A program made the position numbers and the translations under genes. A DNA stretch of 64,000 nt from Candidatus Parcubacteria bacterium (GTDB lineage Bacteria > Patescibacteriota > Minisyncoccia > UBA6257 > JAGOQP01), in contig AP024682.1 in NCBI GenBank assembly GCA_025999395.1, positions 237,638 through 301,637 on the forward strand, read 5' to 3'. The notes below the pieces were generated by a model that was not told where the DNA came from, did no database searches, and was given only the letters and a program-made list of their open reading frames with translations. The first letter of the stretch is position 1. Each line of letters starts with the position of its first letter. This document shows positions 14,820 through 21,691 of this stretch, in pieces.

Positions 14820-16067
14820 ATGAAAAAGAGAAAAGCTCTTTTTTTATTGATTTTTGTTTTTTTAGCCAGCGTTGTTGGCGCTTTTTTTGTTTATCCTCAA
14901 AATTTAATTTCTCGTCTTTATCAGCTTAGTCCTTGGAAATTGGGATTAGATATTGTAGGAGGGGCTCATCTTACTTATAAAGTAGATACCTCTAATTTGT
15001 CAGAGACCGACATTGATGAAACCATTGCTGGCTTAAGAGATGTTATTGAAAGAAGAATTAATCTTTTTGGAGTGAGAGAACCACAGGTAGCAATTTCCAA
15101 GAGTGGAGGAGAATACTATATTATTGTGGAGCTTTCGGGAGTTTCTGATCTTTCTCAAGCTATTAATGAAATTGGCACCACTCCTTATCTTGATTTTAGG
15201 GAAATTCAAGGAGAGGGAGAAAAGGCTTCTTATGTTCCTACCGGATTAAATGGCCGCCACATTAAATCTGCTCGACTTGACTTTAATCAAACTACTGGTC
15301 AGGCGCAGGTAGCTTTAACTTTAAACAAAGAAGGAGCGGAACTTTTTGAAAAAATTACCGAAAGAAATGTGGGAAAAATTGTAGGGATTTTTCTTGACGG
15401 GTTTCCTATTAGCCAACCTCGGGTTAATGAAAAAATTACTGGTGGACAAGCGGTAATCACCGGCGATTTCACTCTCAAAGAAGCAAAAGCTTTAGTAGAA
15501 AGGTTAAATGCTGGAGCTTTGCCAGCACCAATTACTTTGGTTGATCAGCAAACGATTGGAGCAAGTTTGGGTAAGGATTCTTTGAAAAAATCAATTCTCG
15601 CAGGAATTGTGGGGGCGGCTTTGGTGGTAATTTTTATGATCGGTTATTATCGTTTCTTTGGATTGTTAGCTTCGATAGCGCTTTTAATTTATGTAATTTT
15701 TTCTCTTTCTATTTTTAAAATCTTTGTAACTTTGACTTTGGCTGGGATCGCAGGTTTCTTGCTTTCTATTGGAATGGCGGTGGATGCCAATATTCTTATT
15801 TTTGAAAGGATTAAAGAAGAGTTAAGGAGGGGATTAACTAGAACTTCAGCTATCGCTCAGGGGTTTAAAAGAGCTTGGCCTTCCATTCGTGATTCTAACA
15901 TTAGTACTATTATCACTTGTTTGATTCTTTTTAATACCACCTCTGGATTTGTAAAGGGATTAGCCTTAACTTTGCTTTTGGGTGTTTTGGTAAGTATGTT
16001 TACTGCTATTACTGTGACGCGAAGCCTTTTGACGGTATTTGTAAGGGAAGAAAGAAAAGAGGCTTAA
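14820..16067 (+). CDS. secD: Protein translocase subunit SecD.
   Basis: N-terminal TM, periplasmic domain, C-terminal 6-TM bundle. LDIVGGAHLTYKVD start is typical, and the gene is followed by secF. Confidence 0.85.
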   Translation: MKKRKALFLLIFVFLASVVGAFFVYPQNLISRLYQLSPWKLGLDIVGGAHLTYKVDTSNLSETDIDETIAGLRDVIERRINLFGVREPQVAISKSGGEYYIIVELSGVSDLSQAINEIGTTPYLDFREIQGEGEKASYVPTGLNGRHIKSARLDFNQTTGQAQVALTLNKEGAELFEKITERNVGKIVGIFLDGFPISQPRVNEKITGGQAVITGDFTLKEAKALVERLNAGALPAPITLVDQQTIGASLGKDSLKKSILAGIVGAALVVIFMIGYYRFFGLLASIALLIYVIFSLSIFKIFVTLTLAGIAGFLLSIGMAVDANILIFERIKEELRRGLTRTSAIAQGFKRAWPSIRDSNISTIITCLILFNTTSGFVKGLALTLLLGVLVSMFTAITVTRSLLTVFVREERKEA

Positions 16068-16083
16068 AGTAATTTTTAAAAAT

Positions 16084-16986
16084 ATGTTAAACATTATCTC
16101 TAAAAAATATCTATTTCTTTCTTTTTCTGGGATTCTGATTTTAACCTCGCTGGTGGGGATTTTGCTTTTTGGTTTTAAATTGGCTATTGATTTTACCGGG
16201 GGAACTGCTTGGCAAATTAAGTTGGAAAATAAAGATGTCAGCGCTTCTCAATTAAAAGATTTTTTTGCTTCTCAATTAAAGGTGGAGAATCCTTTGGTTT
16301 TAGAAGAAATTTCTTCTCGTTCTTTCATTGTTCGATTGCCTCATCTTTCAGAGCAGCAACACCAAGAGTATCTTTCGGCTTTGACTGAAAAATTTGGTAA
16401 GGTAGAAGAATTGCGATTTGGTTCGATTGGACCAGTGATTGGAAAACAGCTTAGAGAAAAATCAATTATTGCTACTCTTCTAGTTCTTTTGGGAATTTCT
16501 CTTTATATTGCTTTTTCTTTTCGACAAGTTTCTTTTCCGGTTCGTTCTTGGAAGTACGGGGTGATTACTTTAGTTACTCTTTTTCATGATGTTCTGATTC
16601 CTAGCGGAGTGGTTGCTTATTTAGGCCACTTTAAGGGAGTGGAGTTGGATGTAAATTTTGTTATTGCTCTTTTGGTGATTATGGGTTTTTCGGTTCATGA
16701 TACAATCGTAGTTTTTGATAGAATTAGAGAAAATCTTCTTTTGAAAAAAGGTACAAAAGCTTTTGATGAAATTGTTAACGATAGCGTTAATCAAACTTTA
16801 GCTCGTTCAATAAACACTTCTTTGACCTTAATTTTAGTACTGGTAGCGATGCTATTGGCAGGACCCGCTTCTCTCAAGCTGTTTGTCTTAATTATTTTAA
16901 TTGGAACAGTGGTAGGAACTTATTCTTCTATCTTTGTTGCTAGTCCCTTATTGACTATTTGGCAAAGATTTGGTAAAAATAAGTAG
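16084..16986 (+). CDS. secF: Protein translocase subunit SecF.
   Basis: DFTGGTAWQI and HDVLIPSGV...VVFDRIREN are SecF signatures. Confidence 0.85.
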   Translation: MLNIISKKYLFLSFSGILILTSLVGILLFGFKLAIDFTGGTAWQIKLENKDVSASQLKDFFASQLKVENPLVLEEISSRSFIVRLPHLSEQQHQEYLSALTEKFGKVEELRFGSIGPVIGKQLREKSIIATLLVLLGISLYIAFSFRQVSFPVRSWKYGVITLVTLFHDVLIPSGVVAYLGHFKGVELDVNFVIALLVIMGFSVHDTIVVFDRIRENLLLKKGTKAFDEIVNDSVNQTLARSINTSLTLILVLVAMLLAGPASLKLFVLIILIGTVVGTYSSIFVASPLLTIWQRFGKNK

Positions 16987-17061: not shown

Positions 17062-18111
17062 TTGTTACTTTTATTTGCTGAAATTATGAAGTTAACAGAA
17101 TCTTTAAACCGCCTAATCAAAGAATTAAATGAGCGTCAAAGAGAAGTAATTGTCCACCGATTTGGGATCGAAACAGCTCCTAAAACTCTGGCTCAATTAG
17201 GAAAAAAATACAAAGTTACTCGAGAAAGAGTGCGTCAGATAGAAGCGATGGGGCTGAAGTCTTTAAGAAAAAAAGCTCAGGGAGACGACTCTTTGAAAAA
17301 ACATTTTGAAGTGTTGGTTAATTATTTGGAAGAGTTAGGGGGGGTGCGACGAGTTGACTTGTTAGCTAGCGATGCTCAATTGATCTTTAAAGATCCTAAA
17401 ATCTCTTCTTCTTATTTAGAGCTTCTTTTTGTTATTTTTGAAAAACCTCATCTTTTTTCTGAAAACAAGGATTTTTACTCTTTTTGGTACCTCTCTCCCA
17501 AACACTTAAAAAACAATCTTGATTTTGTTAAAAAACTTCTCAAGTTTTTAAAGGACAAAAAAGAAGAGGTTTTAGAGAAAAGGTTATTTGATTATCTTTT
17601 TTCCCAAGTGGTTAAAGAGCATTCTTTAAGCGATTTTGTGGCTTTGAATTTTATTCAAAATTCCAAGAGATTTGCTACTAATCCCTTTGGAGATTTTGGT
17701 TTGGCCGAATGGAGAGAAATTCTTCCCAAAACAGTGCGTGATAAGTCTTATTTAATTCTTAAGAAGAGAAAAACCCCCATGCACTTTAGAGAAATTGCTC
17801 AGGAGATTAACAAAATCGGGTTTGATCACCGTCGGGCTCATCCTCAAACAGTTCATAACGAACTAATCAAAGATCCGCGGTTTGTTCTGGTAGGAAGGGG
17901 GCTTTACTCTTTAAGGGAATTTGGAATTATTCCGGGAACCACCCGGGAGATTTTAAAGAAAATTTTAAAGACTCATGGTCCTTTGCCTTTGGAAAAAATT
18001 ATTGAATTAGTTTCTCAGCAAAGAGTAATCAAACACAATACAATTTTGCTTAACTTAGCTAATCGAAAGCATTTTAAGAAAACGGAAGACGGTTTATATC
18101 GAGTGGCTTAA
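17062..18111 (+). CDS. DNA-binding protein with an N-terminal sigma70 region-4-like HTH and a C-terminal HARE-HTH-like winged helix. The likely true start is ATG 17086.
   Basis: The N-terminus RQREVIVHRFGIETAPKTLAQLGKKYKVTRERVRQIEAMGLKSLRK closely matches sigma70 region 4.2. The C-terminus PMHFREIAQEINKIGFDHRRAHPQTVHNELIKDPRFVLVGRGLYSLREFG matches the HARE-HTH pattern (PMhxkEIaeeIlexg...tVsaaLskD.RFxrvgrGvYaLre). Confidence 0.5.
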   Translation: MLLLFAEIMKLTESLNRLIKELNERQREVIVHRFGIETAPKTLAQLGKKYKVTRERVRQIEAMGLKSLRKKAQGDDSLKKHFEVLVNYLEELGGVRRVDLLASDAQLIFKDPKISSSYLELLFVIFEKPHLFSENKDFYSFWYLSPKHLKNNLDFVKKLLKFLKDKKEEVLEKRLFDYLFSQVVKEHSLSDFVALNFIQNSKRFATNPFGDFGLAEWREILPKTVRDKSYLILKKRKTPMHFREIAQEINKIGFDHRRAHPQTVHNELIKDPRFVLVGRGLYSLREFGIIPGTTREILKKILKTHGPLPLEKIIELVSQQRVIKHNTILLNLANRKHFKKTEDGLYRVA

Positions 18112-18129
18112 AATTTGATATTGAGATAG

Positions 18130-18163
18130 AGAAGCCGCTTTTTTAAAGCGGCTCTTTTTATTT
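18130..18163 (+). terminator. Rho-independent terminator after the HTH gene.
   Basis: AGCCGCTTTTTTAAAGCGGCT hairpin followed by CTTTTTATTT. Confidence 0.5.
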
Positions 18164-18187
18164 AGCGCTTTTCATCTCTCGATTTTT

Positions 18188-19831
18188 GTGGTATTCTTTT
18201 TTAAATCAAAAAGAACTTTTATGAGCGAAAATTCAAAAGATATTATTTATCTAGCCAAAACCAATTTTCGCAATCAAGAGCGAATTTTTGGAATTAGGCG
18301 TCAAGATCGACGTCAGCACGTTTATATTATTGGAAAAACTGGAACCGGAAAGTCAGTTTTGCTGTCTAATATGATTTTACAAGATATTGCTAACGGGGAG
18401 GGAGTTTGTGTAATTGATCCTCATGGAGAGTTGGTGGAAGGAGTACTAAGAAATATTCCAAAATCTCGCAAAGAAGATGTTATTTATTTTAATCCCGCCG
18501 ACACTCAGTATCACATTGGTTTTAATGTTTTAGAAATTCCCGATCCTACTTATAAACATTTAGTAGCTTCGGGGCTGATGGGAATTTTTACTAAAATTTG
18601 GTCCAATGTTTGGTCAGCGCGAATGGAGTATATTTTAAATAATACTATTTTAGCTCTTTTGGATACGCCCGGCTCAACAATGTTAGGAATCAATCGAATT
18701 TTGGTTGACAGCGCTTATCGCCAACGAGTAATTGCCAATATCAAAGATCCAGTAGTAAAAGCTTTTTGGATCTATGAATTTGAGCAGTGGTCTAATCAAT
18801 TTCGTAACGAAGCTATTGCTCCAATTCAAAATAAGGTAGGGCAATTTCTTTCTACTTCAATTATTCGCAACATTGTGGGACAGTCAAAAAGTACGATTGA
18901 TTTTTTCAAGATTATGAATGAAGGAAAGATTCTTTTGGTGGATGTTTCTAAAGGAAAAATCGGAGAAGATAACTCGGCTCTTTTGGGGGCGATGATTATT
19001 ACCAAGCTTCAGCTTTCAGCGATGGAGAGAGTTAGAATTCCGGAGGAGAAAAGAAGAGATTTTTATCTTTATGTTGATGAATTTCAAAACTTTGCCACTG
19101 ATTCTTTTGCTAACATTCTTTCAGAAGCTAGAAAATACCGTCTCAATTTAACGGTGGCTCATCAGTATATTGGTCAATTAGTGGGTCCTTCCAATAACAC
19201 TAAAGTAAGAGACGCTGTTTTTGGTAATGTGGGGACGATGATTGTTTTTCGAATTGGAGCGGCGGATGCTGATTTTCTTAAGGAGGAAATGGCTCCGGAA
19301 TTTAGTCCTCAGGATATGGTCAATCTTCCTAATTATCACATTTATCTAAAACTGATGGTTCAAGGTGTGACTTCACGACCGTTTTCCGCAATTACTCTTC
19401 CGCCTTTGATTTTGAGGGAAGAAAAAGCCGAAGTAGAAGAAATTATTGAGGAGTCGCGTTTGCGCTATGCTCGTCCTCGGCAAGAGGTGGAAAAAGAAAT
19501 CGATGCTTGGAGTCAAGCAACCCTAGGCTTTTCTTTTCTTAAGCCTTCTTTAGAGGAATCTACTTCTATCACCGGCTTAAAAAGAAAAGAATGTGCTCTC
19601 TGTCAGAAAACGGTTTTGGTACCCGAGGACTTTTCTGAAAAAGATCCTTTTTACTGCCAAGAGTGCCTTGAAAGATTGAATTCAAAAAAGTCAGAAGAAA
19701 TATCGATTTCAGAGTTACCTGCATCTCAAAAAAGCGAAAGCCCTCCCTTAGCAGAAGCTGAAAAGAAAAAGAAAAAAAAGATAGATGTTGAGGGATTAAG
19801 GGAAGCTTTGCGGAAAGCTCTTTCTTCTTGA
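18188..19831 (+). CDS. HerA/TraG(VirD4)/FtsK-superfamily P-loop ATPase with a C-terminal CxxC...CxxC zinc ribbon. The likely true start is ATG 18221. No TM segment.
   Basis: Walker A IIGKTGTGKS. VIDPHGEL (the DPHGEY-type motif of DUF87/HerA). Walker B LYVDEFQNF. RKYRLNLTVAHQYIGQL (the Q...QL motif of coupling proteins). C-terminal CALCQ...CQEC. Confidence 0.55.
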   Translation: MVFFFKSKRTFMSENSKDIIYLAKTNFRNQERIFGIRRQDRRQHVYIIGKTGTGKSVLLSNMILQDIANGEGVCVIDPHGELVEGVLRNIPKSRKEDVIYFNPADTQYHIGFNVLEIPDPTYKHLVASGLMGIFTKIWSNVWSARMEYILNNTILALLDTPGSTMLGINRILVDSAYRQRVIANIKDPVVKAFWIYEFEQWSNQFRNEAIAPIQNKVGQFLSTSIIRNIVGQSKSTIDFFKIMNEGKILLVDVSKGKIGEDNSALLGAMIITKLQLSAMERVRIPEEKRRDFYLYVDEFQNFATDSFANILSEARKYRLNLTVAHQYIGQLVGPSNNTKVRDAVFGNVGTMIVFRIGAADADFLKEEMAPEFSPQDMVNLPNYHIYLKLMVQGVTSRPFSAITLPPLILREEKAEVEEIIEESRLRYARPRQEVEKEIDAWSQATLGFSFLKPSLEESTSITGLKRKECALCQKTVLVPEDFSEKDPFYCQECLERLNSKKSEEISISELPASQKSESPPLAEAEKKKKKKIDVEGLREALRKALSS

Positions 19832-19866: not shown

Positions 19867-21162
19867 ATGATTATATTAGAGGCTGGGCAATTAATTCTTA
19901 ATGGGTTGGAGTCTTTATGGTGGTTATTGGCATTAATAATTTTGGTACCTTTAGCTCACGAAAGCTGGCTGGCTTGGCGTCAAGAAATTTATAAATCAGC
20001 TGTTAAATATATCTTGCTTGAGATTCGAATCCCTCCTCAAGTGAAAAAAAGTCCCAAAGCAATGGAGCAGATTTTGGCTCAAATTCATTCTTTGGGAAAT
20101 TATCCGGGAAATCTTAAATCTTATAATTTAGAGGGGGAAGTAACTCTTTGGTTTTCTTTGGATGTAGTTAGTTTTGGAGGAGAGATTCATTTTTATTTAC
20201 GCCTTCCTCAAAAACATCAGGAAATTGTAGAAACCGCTTTCTTTTCTTATTATCCAGATTTGGAAATAGTGCCGGTGAAAGATTATTTGGAAGATCTTCC
20301 TCAAACCCTATTTGAAACTTATCAAAGAAACTTCGATTTTTGGGGAACTGAATTTGTTTTAGGAAAAGAAGATATCTACCCTTTGAAAACTTATCAAGAT
20401 TTTGAAGGAGGAACAGAAAAAGAATTTGATCCTATTTCTGTTTTGTTAGAAGTTTTAGCTAAAGTAAAGAAAAATGAGTTTGTAGCTCTTCAGTTTATCT
20501 GTCTTCCTTCGCCAGCAAAAGATTGGAAGGAAAGAGGGGAAAGGGTTATTCAAGAGCTAAAGGAAAAAAGCTCTCCGGCTCCAAAAGAATCTTTGGAAGG
20601 TCAGACTTCTCAAGTTAGCCCTCCGTCTAATTCCAAAGATTTAGAATTAGCTAAATTGATTGAAAAAAATATAGAGAAACCAGCTTTTAAGGTTTTAATT
20701 CGAGCTGGTTATTTTGGTTCGCGTGAGAATTTTAGCGAGGGTTTTGTAAAGAATGGGTTAAAAGGCGCTCTTAATCAATACAGTGGCCCGGAGATGAATT
20801 TTTTTAATAGTAATGGTCAAGTAGAAACTAAACCTCAACTCACCGGCTGGCCTTATCTTTTTCCTCGATTAAGAGTTTCTTGGCGCAAGCAAAGAATGCT
20901 TTTTAACTTTTCTAGATTTCTTATTCCTCCTCAAACCTTTATTGGAAAATTAGCTACCTCTCATCTTTTAAATAGCAATTTTAACTCTCAGATGTTTTAC
21001 TTAAACACTCAGGTTTTAGCTACTCTTTTTCATCCCCCCTTACATTTTGTCATCACTTCCCCCCACATTAAAGAGCTTCCTAGCCGAAAATTAGGAGCGC
21101 CTGCTGGCTTACCAATTTTTGGGGAAGAGGAAGAGAGATTAAAAAAATTTGAGATTAAGTAG
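19867..21162 (+). CDS. Hypothetical membrane-anchored protein (N-terminal TM), downstream partner of the ATPase.
   Basis: One N-terminal hydrophobic helix (LWWLLALIILVPLA). No recognisable domain. The intergenic gap is 35 nt. Confidence 0.4.
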   Translation: MIILEAGQLILNGLESLWWLLALIILVPLAHESWLAWRQEIYKSAVKYILLEIRIPPQVKKSPKAMEQILAQIHSLGNYPGNLKSYNLEGEVTLWFSLDVVSFGGEIHFYLRLPQKHQEIVETAFFSYYPDLEIVPVKDYLEDLPQTLFETYQRNFDFWGTEFVLGKEDIYPLKTYQDFEGGTEKEFDPISVLLEVLAKVKKNEFVALQFICLPSPAKDWKERGERVIQELKEKSSPAPKESLEGQTSQVSPPSNSKDLELAKLIEKNIEKPAFKVLIRAGYFGSRENFSEGFVKNGLKGALNQYSGPEMNFFNSNGQVETKPQLTGWPYLFPRLRVSWRKQRMLFNFSRFLIPPQTFIGKLATSHLLNSNFNSQMFYLNTQVLATLFHPPLHFVITSPHIKELPSRKLGAPAGLPIFGEEEERLKKFEIK

Positions 21163-21178: not shown

Positions 21179-21691
21179 ATGGAAAATCTTTTCGGACCTT
21201 TTACTAAAATCTTTGAGGTAATTAAGATAGTAGTCATCGGTTTGGATGTTTTTCTACTTTTAATTTTTCTTTATGCTTTAAGAGGCTTAAGAAATTTTCG
21301 ACCTCATTTTTTTGATTGGGAGAAAAAATTTCAATCCTTGGAGACGGCTTTTAATAAAAATAATCCAACTCTTTCTTTTTCGGAAGAATGGCAAAAGGTT
21401 TTATTTCTTTTTCGAAAAGAGAAACCGGAAGCTTGGCGGCTGGCTTTATTGGCCGCTCATTCTTTAGGTGAGAGGGCTTTAGCTCAATTAGGATTAGCTA
21501 AAGAGAACTTTAAGCAATCACTTCTTTTTTTGGAAGAAAGGGGGTTAGAAAGTTTAAAGGAGGTGGAGAGGGCTTATAAGCTTTACAAGCAATTGTTGAC
21601 TTTGCCCTATTTTTCTCTTTCTCTAGAAGAAACAAAAGAAGCTCTTTTAGCTTATCATCTTTTTCTTAAAGAATTAGGCGTCTTAAAATAG
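21179..21691 (+). CDS. Hypothetical small membrane protein, third gene of the ATPase module.
   Basis: N-terminal TM (VIKIVVIGLDVFLLLIFLYAL) and a helical soluble part. A 16-nt gap separates it from the previous gene. Confidence 0.35.
   Translation: MENLFGPFTKIFEVIKIVVIGLDVFLLLIFLYALRGLRNFRPHFFDWEKKFQSLETAFNKNNPTLSFSEEWQKVLFLFRKEKPEAWRLALLAAHSLGERALAQLGLAKENFKQSLLFLEERGLESLKEVERAYKLYKQLLTLPYFSLSLEETKEALLAYHLFLKELGVLK

Follow-up and report, generated by a model that had tools for sequence, protein, structure and literature searches.

At position 17086 of the stretch analysed here (the window: 64,000 nucleotides of a Candidatus Parcubacteria bacterium, GenBank assembly GCA_025999395.1, contig AP024682.1, positions 237,638 to 301,637 of the forward strand) begins a gene whose product combines sigma-70 region 4 (sigma4) with a set of winged-helix domains that includes a HARE-HTH (helix-turn-helix) domain, and which we call the sigma4-HARE gene. 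The mechanical open reading frame (ORF) runs from a TTG at 17062 to 18111 on the plus strand, and alignment with 40 homologs makes the ATG at 17086 the likely start, giving a protein of 341 aa. Upstream lie genes for a class II ribonucleotide reductase (RNR) and a small membrane protein, followed by secD and secF, with the end of secF at 16986, about 100 bp 5' of the sigma4-HARE gene; downstream come a terminator and genes for an ATPase, a 431-aa DUF8128 protein, a 170-aa membrane protein, efp, murC and mnmA. The gene and its parts are positioned as follows.

17086..18111, plus strand: coding sequence of the sigma4 plus four winged-helix protein (341 aa and stop), from the ORF list, Pfam and homolog N-termini that align to ATG 17086.
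17092..17280, plus strand: sigma-70 region 4 (aa 3-65), from PF04545, PDB profile and Foldseek matches; recognition helix TRERVRQIE at nt 17218-17244 (aa 45-53).
17287..17490, plus strand: predicted winged-helix-like domain 1 (wH1, aa 68-135), acidic (net charge -1.8) and poorly conserved; AlphaFold2 order H-E-H-H-E-E (H, helix; E, strand), predicted local distance difference test (pLDDT) >90.
17497..17703, plus strand: helical and beta-hairpin domain 2 (wH2, aa 138-206), predicted to be winged-helix-like and ending with a conserved FGDFGL..W.E; from the alignment and AlphaFold2.
17731..17922, plus strand: HARE-HTH winged helix (aa 216-279), better conserved than any other domain; PF05066 E 1e-11, found in 44/44 diverse members.
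17941..18105, plus strand: predicted C-terminal winged helix 4 (wH4, aa 286-340), basic; AlphaFold2 order H-H-H-E-E, weak TFIIE_beta match at aa 290-324.
18133..18163, plus strand: intrinsic-terminator-like hairpin and T-run 3' of the coding sequence; 9-bp stem with 5 GC pairs, tail CTTTTTATTT.

A first-pass annotation of the window had described a sigma-70 region-4 HTH and a HARE-HTH domain in a single protein, and both were recovered by Pfam above the curated cut-offs (24.1 bits for Sigma70_r4, 25.9 bits for HARE-HTH): Sigma70_r4 (PF04545) at aa 11-62 with 52.7 bits (E 3.1e-14), and HARE-HTH (PF05066) at aa 216-279 with 45.5 bits (E 1e-11). Regions 2 and 3, which the same annotation had said were missing, gave no Pfam match to the window protein at E<=1 (Sigma70_r2, Sigma70_r3), nor did region 1.2, and the C-terminal domain of the RNA polymerase (RNAP) alpha subunit was not detected by Pfam. 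The NCBIfam sigma-factor models (MzaA, RpoD, RpoS, RpoH) match the protein via their last ~70 positions only (aa 2-73), and a family profile run against PDB sequences matched only region 4 of SigA, RpoD and RpoS, the best match being Staphylococcus aureus SigA region 4 (4g6d, E 2.5e-16). The annotation had confined the HARE-HTH domain to the last ~75 aa of a two-domain protein; the domain itself stands, but it ends at aa 279 and a winged helix (286-340) follows, and the stretch between sigma4 and HARE is predicted to be two more winged-helix-like domains and no linker, so that the protein has five domains.

AlphaFold2, run with 41 homologs, gave a model of high confidence along its whole length (mean pLDDT 94.1, every residue at 70 or above; predicted template modelling score (pTM) 0.80) that consists of sigma4 followed by four winged helices, with domain boundaries by secondary structure as listed above (217-276 for HARE). 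The pTM suggests that the domains are held in a fixed, compact arrangement and are not beads on a string. In Foldseek comparisons with the PDB, the whole chain resembles tandem winged-helix arrays, namely UFL1/DDRGK1 (8b9x, E 5e-5), SelB WH1-4, Dcc1 and Rpc5, and the N-terminus superimposes on solved sigma4 domains with a root-mean-square deviation (rmsd) of ~0.7-2 Å over 57-60 aa at 35-47% identity. The DPAM parse of SEML1_0294, the presumed counterpart in Southlakia epibionticum, likewise gives one tri-helical domain and then three 'winged' domains, the part equivalent to domain 2 being among those labelled 'winged' (PMC10633639). Three chimeras of sigma4 and the RNAP beta flap tip (8d5v, 7kug, 7kuf) align with the model over 119-125 columns with TMt 0.71-0.76, whereas the other chimeras of this kind align through their sigma4 part alone (57-64 columns, TMt 0.48-0.62). 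Because the former align longer and with higher TMt, the helix after sigma4 may fold into the cleft that normally receives the flap tip, a hint taken from Foldseek summary numbers.

The architecture recurs across a large family. The 120 best matches in a collection of 5.8 billion proteins are all ~340 aa, with 96-100% query coverage and both Pfam domains (one fragment aside), and those with named sources come from Wolfebacteria, Paceibacterota or the 'Patescibacteria group'. In an exhaustive HMMER search of 1.84 billion cluster representatives, 956 matched at E<=1e-10, 558 of which reached E<=1e-30; the 558 are representatives at 50% identity and hence at least 558 clusters, with full-length coverage among the matches listed. 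Scanning of genomes and metagenomes extends the family to Saccharibacteria, Moraniibacteriota and Azambacteria, and in a diverse alignment (32-74% identity) each of the 44 members carries both domains. Since both domains and the length are constant across hundreds of relatives, the protein, to judge from these comparisons, belongs to a large lineage-restricted family and is neither a broken sigma factor nor a curiosity of this genome. The question of lineage restriction, raised by the first-pass annotation, is thereby answered in the affirmative, with the fusion confined to Patescibacteria as far as named sequences show. The term 'unusual' in that annotation holds against textbook bacteria only; in bacteria of the Candidate Phyla Radiation (CPR) it is a core family that has been named in NCBI and UniRef (the public name being 'sigma factor-like helix-turn-helix DNA-binding protein'), and as a member of this known, uncharacterised family the window gene is ordinary.

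The 41-47% identity between the first 65 aa and region 4 of group-1 sigma factors would be explained if the gene were that of an ordinary sigma factor, truncated or decayed. Hundreds of relatives, however, 262 of them full-length (300-420 aa), match the protein in length and have both domains; the ORF is intact, the C-terminal 275 aa show conservation and a confident predicted fold, the end of secF leaves no room for regions 1-3, and S. epibionticum has a separate full RpoD (SEML1_0063) that is itself essential (PMC10633639). On the sequences compared, truncation is refuted by the family-wide architecture, and we give it practically no credence.

Some members and near-misses of these searches deserve mention. 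At loci L028 (4974-6062) and L029 (2103-3191) an intact 362-aa ORF exists only under genetic code 25 (UGA sense), which is typical of Gracilibacteria and Absconditabacteria; these are the most divergent members (26-27% identity) and lie between IMPDH-like and dCMP-deaminase-like genes, the L028 gene close to rpoC/rpoB on the opposite strand. An N run (assembly gap, 1769-1880) interrupts the gene at L006, where residues 3-227 only were matched. Sixty-three of 80 metagenome loci (L030-L092) had been picked up through the TRERVRQI pattern and proved to be ordinary sigma factors; they were set aside. Viral collections hold essentially none of the family: BFVD contains no protein with the same architecture, and the 80 IMG/VR loci include one full-length relative (29% identity), the rest being phage sigma factors, on which grounds a phage origin was rejected.

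Conservation and net charge were computed over the 262 full-length members. Residues R25, L35, G39, E47 and R50 are invariant (262/262), and R46, R48 and Q51 are kept in 261/262. From the PDB alignment and textbook numbering, we take the conserved residues to be R562, L573, G577 and R584/E585/R586/R588/Q589 of E. coli sigma70, the last five of which contact the -35 hexamer. HARE, which includes QTVHNELIKDPRFVLVGRGLY (aa 254-274), is the most conserved domain of the protein (mean identity 0.66). The mean net charge is +4.8 for sigma4, -1.8 for wH1, +1.6 for wH2, +5.7 for HARE and +6.2 for wH4, and because sigma4, HARE and wH4 are net positive, three of the five look as if they bind nucleic acid.

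The interpretation we prefer, tentatively and with slightly less than even confidence, would make the protein a transcription factor, essential and specific to the lineage, which binds -35-like DNA and is neither a sigma factor nor RNAP delta. A stand-alone -35-reading factor is best supported because the -35 readers are invariant, three domains are basic and HTH-type, and the predicted fold is compact. In the mechanism we envisage, the sigma4 module would bind TTGACA-like DNA on its own, stabilised by the next helix filling its flap-tip cleft, while the basic HARE and C-terminal winged helices would hold neighbouring DNA. The promoter-bound protein would then occlude or mark -35 regions and so control an essential gene set, with the adjacent ATPase operon probably among the controlled genes.

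Both domain types are also known RNAP-binding modules, sigma4 binding the beta flap and the N-terminal domain of delta (a HARE-HTH) binding RNAP (beta' in Firmicutes). An accessory subunit with sigma4 on the beta flap tip, where it would compete with or replace region 4 of the housekeeping sigma, and with HARE on beta' could act globally on initiation or recycling. A general factor of this kind is consistent with the essentiality and core status; L028 and L029 lie next to rpoC/rpoB (opposite strand), and the delta model TIGR04567 gives a match of 35.1 bits. That match lies below the model's cut-off of 42, however; the protein lacks an acidic C-terminal tail, its HARE (+5.7) and wH4 (+6.2) domains being net positive, the Foldseek comparison hints that the next helix of the protein itself occupies the flap-tip cleft, and RNAP docking alone does not require invariant -35 readers. 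We regard such a subunit as unlikely and place it third among the readings considered here.

The first-pass annotation had given the gene its own terminator and placed it immediately upstream of an ATPase module, and both statements were borne out: the stem (18133-18153, nine pairs) is followed by a T-run, and the next two genes are the following.

18221..19831, plus strand: soluble TrwB/TraD/VirD4-like P-loop ATPase of type IV coupling protein (T4CP) type with a C-terminal CxxC-x17-CxxC zinc ribbon; from Pfam, TIGR03743 and 1e9r.
19867..21162, plus strand: DUF8128 (PF26449) protein, 431 aa, with an N-terminal membrane helix and a VirB4/TrwK-like predicted fold; from PF26449, AlphaFold2 and Foldseek.

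The ATPase matches TrwB_AAD_bind (6e-15), DUF87, T4SS-DNA_transf and TraG-D_C in Pfam and the TraD model TIGR03743 (2e-16) in NCBIfam, has TrwB as its best PDB sequence match (1e9r, E 9e-7), and is without the usual N-terminal transmembrane domain of coupling proteins. Its zinc ribbon (19589-19675, aa 457-485) gives weak TIGR04272, DUF4428 and zf_Tbcl_2 matches and is followed by a Lys-rich tail (KKKKKK), which is unusual for coupling proteins. The DUF8128 protein combines a membrane helix at its extreme N-terminus (aa 2-45) with a VirB4-like body that has no Walker A motif; its AlphaFold2 model (pLDDT 84.5, pTM 0.82) produced 13 significant Foldseek matches in the PDB, all of them VirB4/TrwK (E 6e-6 to 4e-4), the next best having E 0.04. 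Because the DUF8128 predicted fold is VirB4-like and the best match of the ATPase is TrwB, the two together look like a split, membrane-anchored VirB4/T4CP-type ATPase. This fits the published orphan VirD4-type homologs of Patescibacteria, of which 5,713 were counted in 2,918 genomes, only 148 of them near virB4, and described as 'possibly exapted for other functions', in a lineage whose type IV secretion systems are reported to be without key conjugation components (PMC12102498). PF26449 carries no annotation, and a literature search on PF26449/DUF8128 returned nothing relevant. The 170-aa protein that follows (21179-21691; N-terminal membrane helix, no family match) is found after DUF8128 in the closest relatives only, and in two of these a second T4CP-like paralog (44-48% identical) comes after it (L001, 10207-11537; L002, 10190-12047) at the position occupied by efp in the window.

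Synteny was assessed by tblastn of the window neighbours against 29 family loci, of which L018 was too short to judge, leaving 28 informative. A DUF8128 homolog lies directly 3' of the family gene on the same strand at 25/28, making DUF8128 the most tightly linked neighbour of the family; the first-pass question whether the gene always adjoins the ATPase is answered by a link to the module at most loci, with exceptions at L008, L028 and L029, where neither DUF8128 nor the T4CP-like gene is nearby. Named CPR lineages among the syntenic loci number at least four; the loci come from Wolfebacteria/Paceibacterota, from Saccharibacteria, from Moraniibacteriota and from other CPR. The ATPase usually lies 3' of DUF8128 and comes first in the window, L001 and L002. 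The link to DUF8128 is kept where secDF is not upstream (L009-L011) and at L020, where the ATPase is elsewhere and the gap to DUF8128 is 27 bp; in the Saccharibacterial metagenome-assembled genome L007 the three genes are spaced 5 and 4 bp apart. The secD-secF pair (window 14820-16986) is directly 5' of the family gene in about half of the loci, on Paceibacteria-type and Saccharibacteria contigs (L001-L007, L012-L015, L018, L093), which suggests that secDF, sigma4-HARE, DUF8128 and T4CP form an old syntenic block. The 7.2-kb contig at L010 (CAZMCZ010000048.1), binned as 'Pseudobdellovibrionaceae', has the sigma4-HARE/DUF8128/T4CP order of the Moraniibacteriota loci L009 and L011 and is probably a mis-binned CPR contig.

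Because the synteny is so tight, two explanations centred on the module stay alive. In the first, the protein would be a DNA-recognition or adaptor partner of DUF8128 and the T4CP-like motor, presenting DNA to the translocase or stimulating it, as TraM, TrwA and PcfF do for conjugative coupling proteins and the winged helices of FtsK gamma and TraB for FtsK-type pumps. The position directly 5' of DUF8128 in several CPR lineages, the survival of the link when secDF is lost or the ATPase/DUF8128 order is inverted, the short gaps at L007 and L020, the TrwB-like ATPase and VirB4-like DUF8128 fold, and the suggested exaptation of orphan Patescibacterial T4CPs (PMC12102498) all point this way. Set against them are the three loci that carry the gene with no module nearby, the terminator that separates the two genes in the window, the absence of a relaxase and of a ribbon-helix-helix (RHH)-type accessory fold, and the finding that in S. 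epibionticum the T4CP-like gene is dispensable, unlike its essential sigma4-HARE neighbour. We consider an adaptor unlikely, though it ranks second.

The S. epibionticum gene, SEML1_0294, encodes 349 aa in which PF04545 spans aa 27-72 and PF05066 spans aa 225-283, was named 'RpoS' by PROKKA, and is flagged as a core and Patescibacteria-enriched family (Wang et al. 2023, PMC10633639). It is the only HARE-type match in that genome (PMC10633639). In transposon insertion sequencing (Tn-seq) its insertions fell from 24 in the input DNA to 1, 1 and 2 after selection, and it was scored essential at every time point (ES/ES/ES), whereas for SEML1_0293, the T4CP-like gene directly downstream and likewise flagged core and Patescibacteria-enriched, the input held 82 insertions and the selected samples 87, 120 and 110 (non-essential, NE; PMC10633639). 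We infer that SEML1_0294 is the ortholog of the window protein from architecture, length, phylum and neighbour: the two have similar lengths (349 vs 341 aa), the two Pfam domains at the same positions, the one-plus-three DPAM parse, and a T4CP-like gene downstream, and an identity of ~35-39% is expected, judged from the Saccharibacterial loci L007 and L008. They differ in that Southlakia has one downstream gene, whereas the window has two, in the opposite order and with a terminator between them and the regulator. SEML1_0293 is a single 921-aa protein with a P-loop domain from ~aa 361 (PMC10633639); this length fits a DUF8128-ATPase fusion, for which it is a candidate.

An essential gene directly 5' of a dispensable one is the classic immunity or repressor pattern, and the second module-centred explanation makes the protein an antitoxin-like repressor of the DUF8128/T4CP operon, essential only via its target because the module is harmful if overexpressed. 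The mismatch in essentiality is what this explanation predicts, the conserved synteny agrees with it, and the module promoter in most loci is an extended -10 with no TTGACA in the gap, which is weak evidence. The family nevertheless persists at L008, L028 and L029 with no module to repress, a search of 22 loci found no operator motif, and a five-domain, phylum-wide protein counted among 921 core families is more than the usual local repressor. We think it distinctly improbable and rank it below the other functional readings.

The promoter survey covered, at those 22 loci, the regions upstream of the sigma4-HARE gene and those before the module (18112-18220 in the window). Upstream of the sigma4-HARE gene a TTGAC[AT] hexamer occurs at 15/22 loci by strict match, often with an extended -10, and in many loci the gene has its own TTGACA/TGnTATAAT-type promoter. 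Before the DUF8128/ATPase genes there is an extended -10 (TGnTAnnnT), with TTGACA inside the gap at 1/22 loci; the intergenic gaps are short, and the -35 of the module promoter could lie inside the upstream coding sequence.

The stand-alone -35-reading factor is further supported by the gene's own promoter and terminator, its presence at loci without the module, and its essentiality beside a dispensable neighbour. Several observations nonetheless weigh against it. No shared palindrome emerged as an operator or target at the 22 loci, only ordinary TTGACA/extended -10 promoters, and the upstream regions look like ordinary sigma-70 promoters. The conservation of the -35 readers could partly reflect constraints of the sigma4 fold, and the self-capping helix is a hint from Foldseek summaries. 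The orthology of SEML1_0294 is drawn from architecture, length, phylum and neighbour, and essentiality comes from one species. The gaps of 4-5 bp in a Saccharibacterium and the strong DUF8128/T4CP synteny point to a partnership more specific than a global factor needs.

A broader possibility, to which we give little weight and which ranks fourth, just before the repressor, is a CPR-specific essential basal transcription component: a free-standing -35 reader, acting on promoter DNA in trans or docked on RNAP by its HARE and other winged helices, that would alter the promoter choice of the housekeeping holoenzyme in these reduced genomes and might tether promoter or incoming DNA to the membrane-anchored VirB4/T4CP-like ATPase. 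Were it true, a basal-component or tethering role would represent transcription control, or a coupling of transcription and translocation, without characterised precedent.

Patescibacteria account for a large part of the diversity of bacteria and have very few recognisable regulators, and a family that is core, enriched, single-copy and essential in one genetically tractable species, built of modules otherwise known from RNAP subunits, offers a concrete, testable way into transcription control specific to CPR. The nearly obligate link of the family to DUF8128 and orphan T4CPs is also a handle on thousands of unexplained Patescibacterial T4CP homologs. The domain combination is already known from public annotation, and the family has been counted as CPR-enriched core and scored essential; it is listed both in the Cell 2023 paper and in the source of the family definitions (Nat Commun 2019), with no discussion of it in either, and a literature search on sigma4/winged-helix proteins in Saccharibacteria returned nothing relevant and no paper discussing the family. 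What is new here is the five-domain anatomy, the family-wide invariance of the -35 readers, the quantified DUF8128/T4CP link and the VirB4-like predicted fold of DUF8128. A 2012 Cell Cycle report by Aravind and Iyer (11:119) reportedly describes HARE-HTH in bacterial proteins with RNAP alpha- or sigma-factor-like parts. If that is right, the idea of the fusion would not be new; the 2012 examples may belong to another family, few CPR genomes being available then.

Candidate identities from known systems were compared with the protein and its surroundings. A defence-system component was rejected: PADLOC gave the sigma4 end of MzaA only, generic mad8/HerA matches for the ATPase, and nothing for DUF8128 or the 170-aa protein, and a defence island is disfavoured by the housekeeping context (RNR, secDF, efp, murC, mnmA). 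An extracytoplasmic function (ECF)-type sigma factor paired with a membrane anti-sigma does not fit either, since region 2 is absent and the downstream membrane protein is VirB4-like, with its helix at aa 2-45; no gene for a sigma2-only partner was seen in the neighbourhood, and the 64-kb window holds no second sigma4 or HARE gene and no RpoD.

With RpoD, SigA and RpoS the protein shares sigma4 (aa 3-65, 41-47% identity, rmsd ~1-2 Å), complete with regions 4.1 and 4.2 and all -35 contacts. Unlike them it is without regions 1.2, 2 and 3, and its sigma4 is followed by four winged helices where theirs ends the chain. Without sigma2 it cannot bind core RNAP through that region, recognise a -10 element or melt DNA, and having no region 2, it is not a sigma factor. 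The link to RNAP delta (RpoE, Firmicutes) drawn by the first-pass annotation holds at the level of the PF05066 family and is otherwise weak: TIGR04567 aligns to aa 220-279 with the sub-threshold score given above, and the HARE-HTH of delta is N-terminal, whereas that of the window protein is internal, basic instead of acidic, and followed by no polyanionic C-terminal tail. A delta ortholog is rejected on the score, the missing tail and the basic domain.

Like TraM, TrwA, PcfF, FtsK gamma and Streptomyces TraB, the window protein is an HTH-type DNA binder (by prediction) encoded beside a homolog of the TrwB-like hexameric ATPases. It does not qualify as a TraM/TrwA/PcfF relaxosome accessory factor: TraM and TrwA have the RHH fold, unlike its HTH and winged helices, and no relaxase-like gene was found among the neighbours, which offer no relaxase/oriT context. 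It departs from these motor-guiding binders further in that, in S. epibionticum, the binder is essential and the motor dispensable. A parallel for a stand-alone protein matching the sigma4 end of a sigma factor is phage T4 gp33, which acts with gp55, binds the beta flap and is reported to have lost DNA binding; in the sigma4-HARE family, unlike gp33, the DNA-reading residues are invariant.

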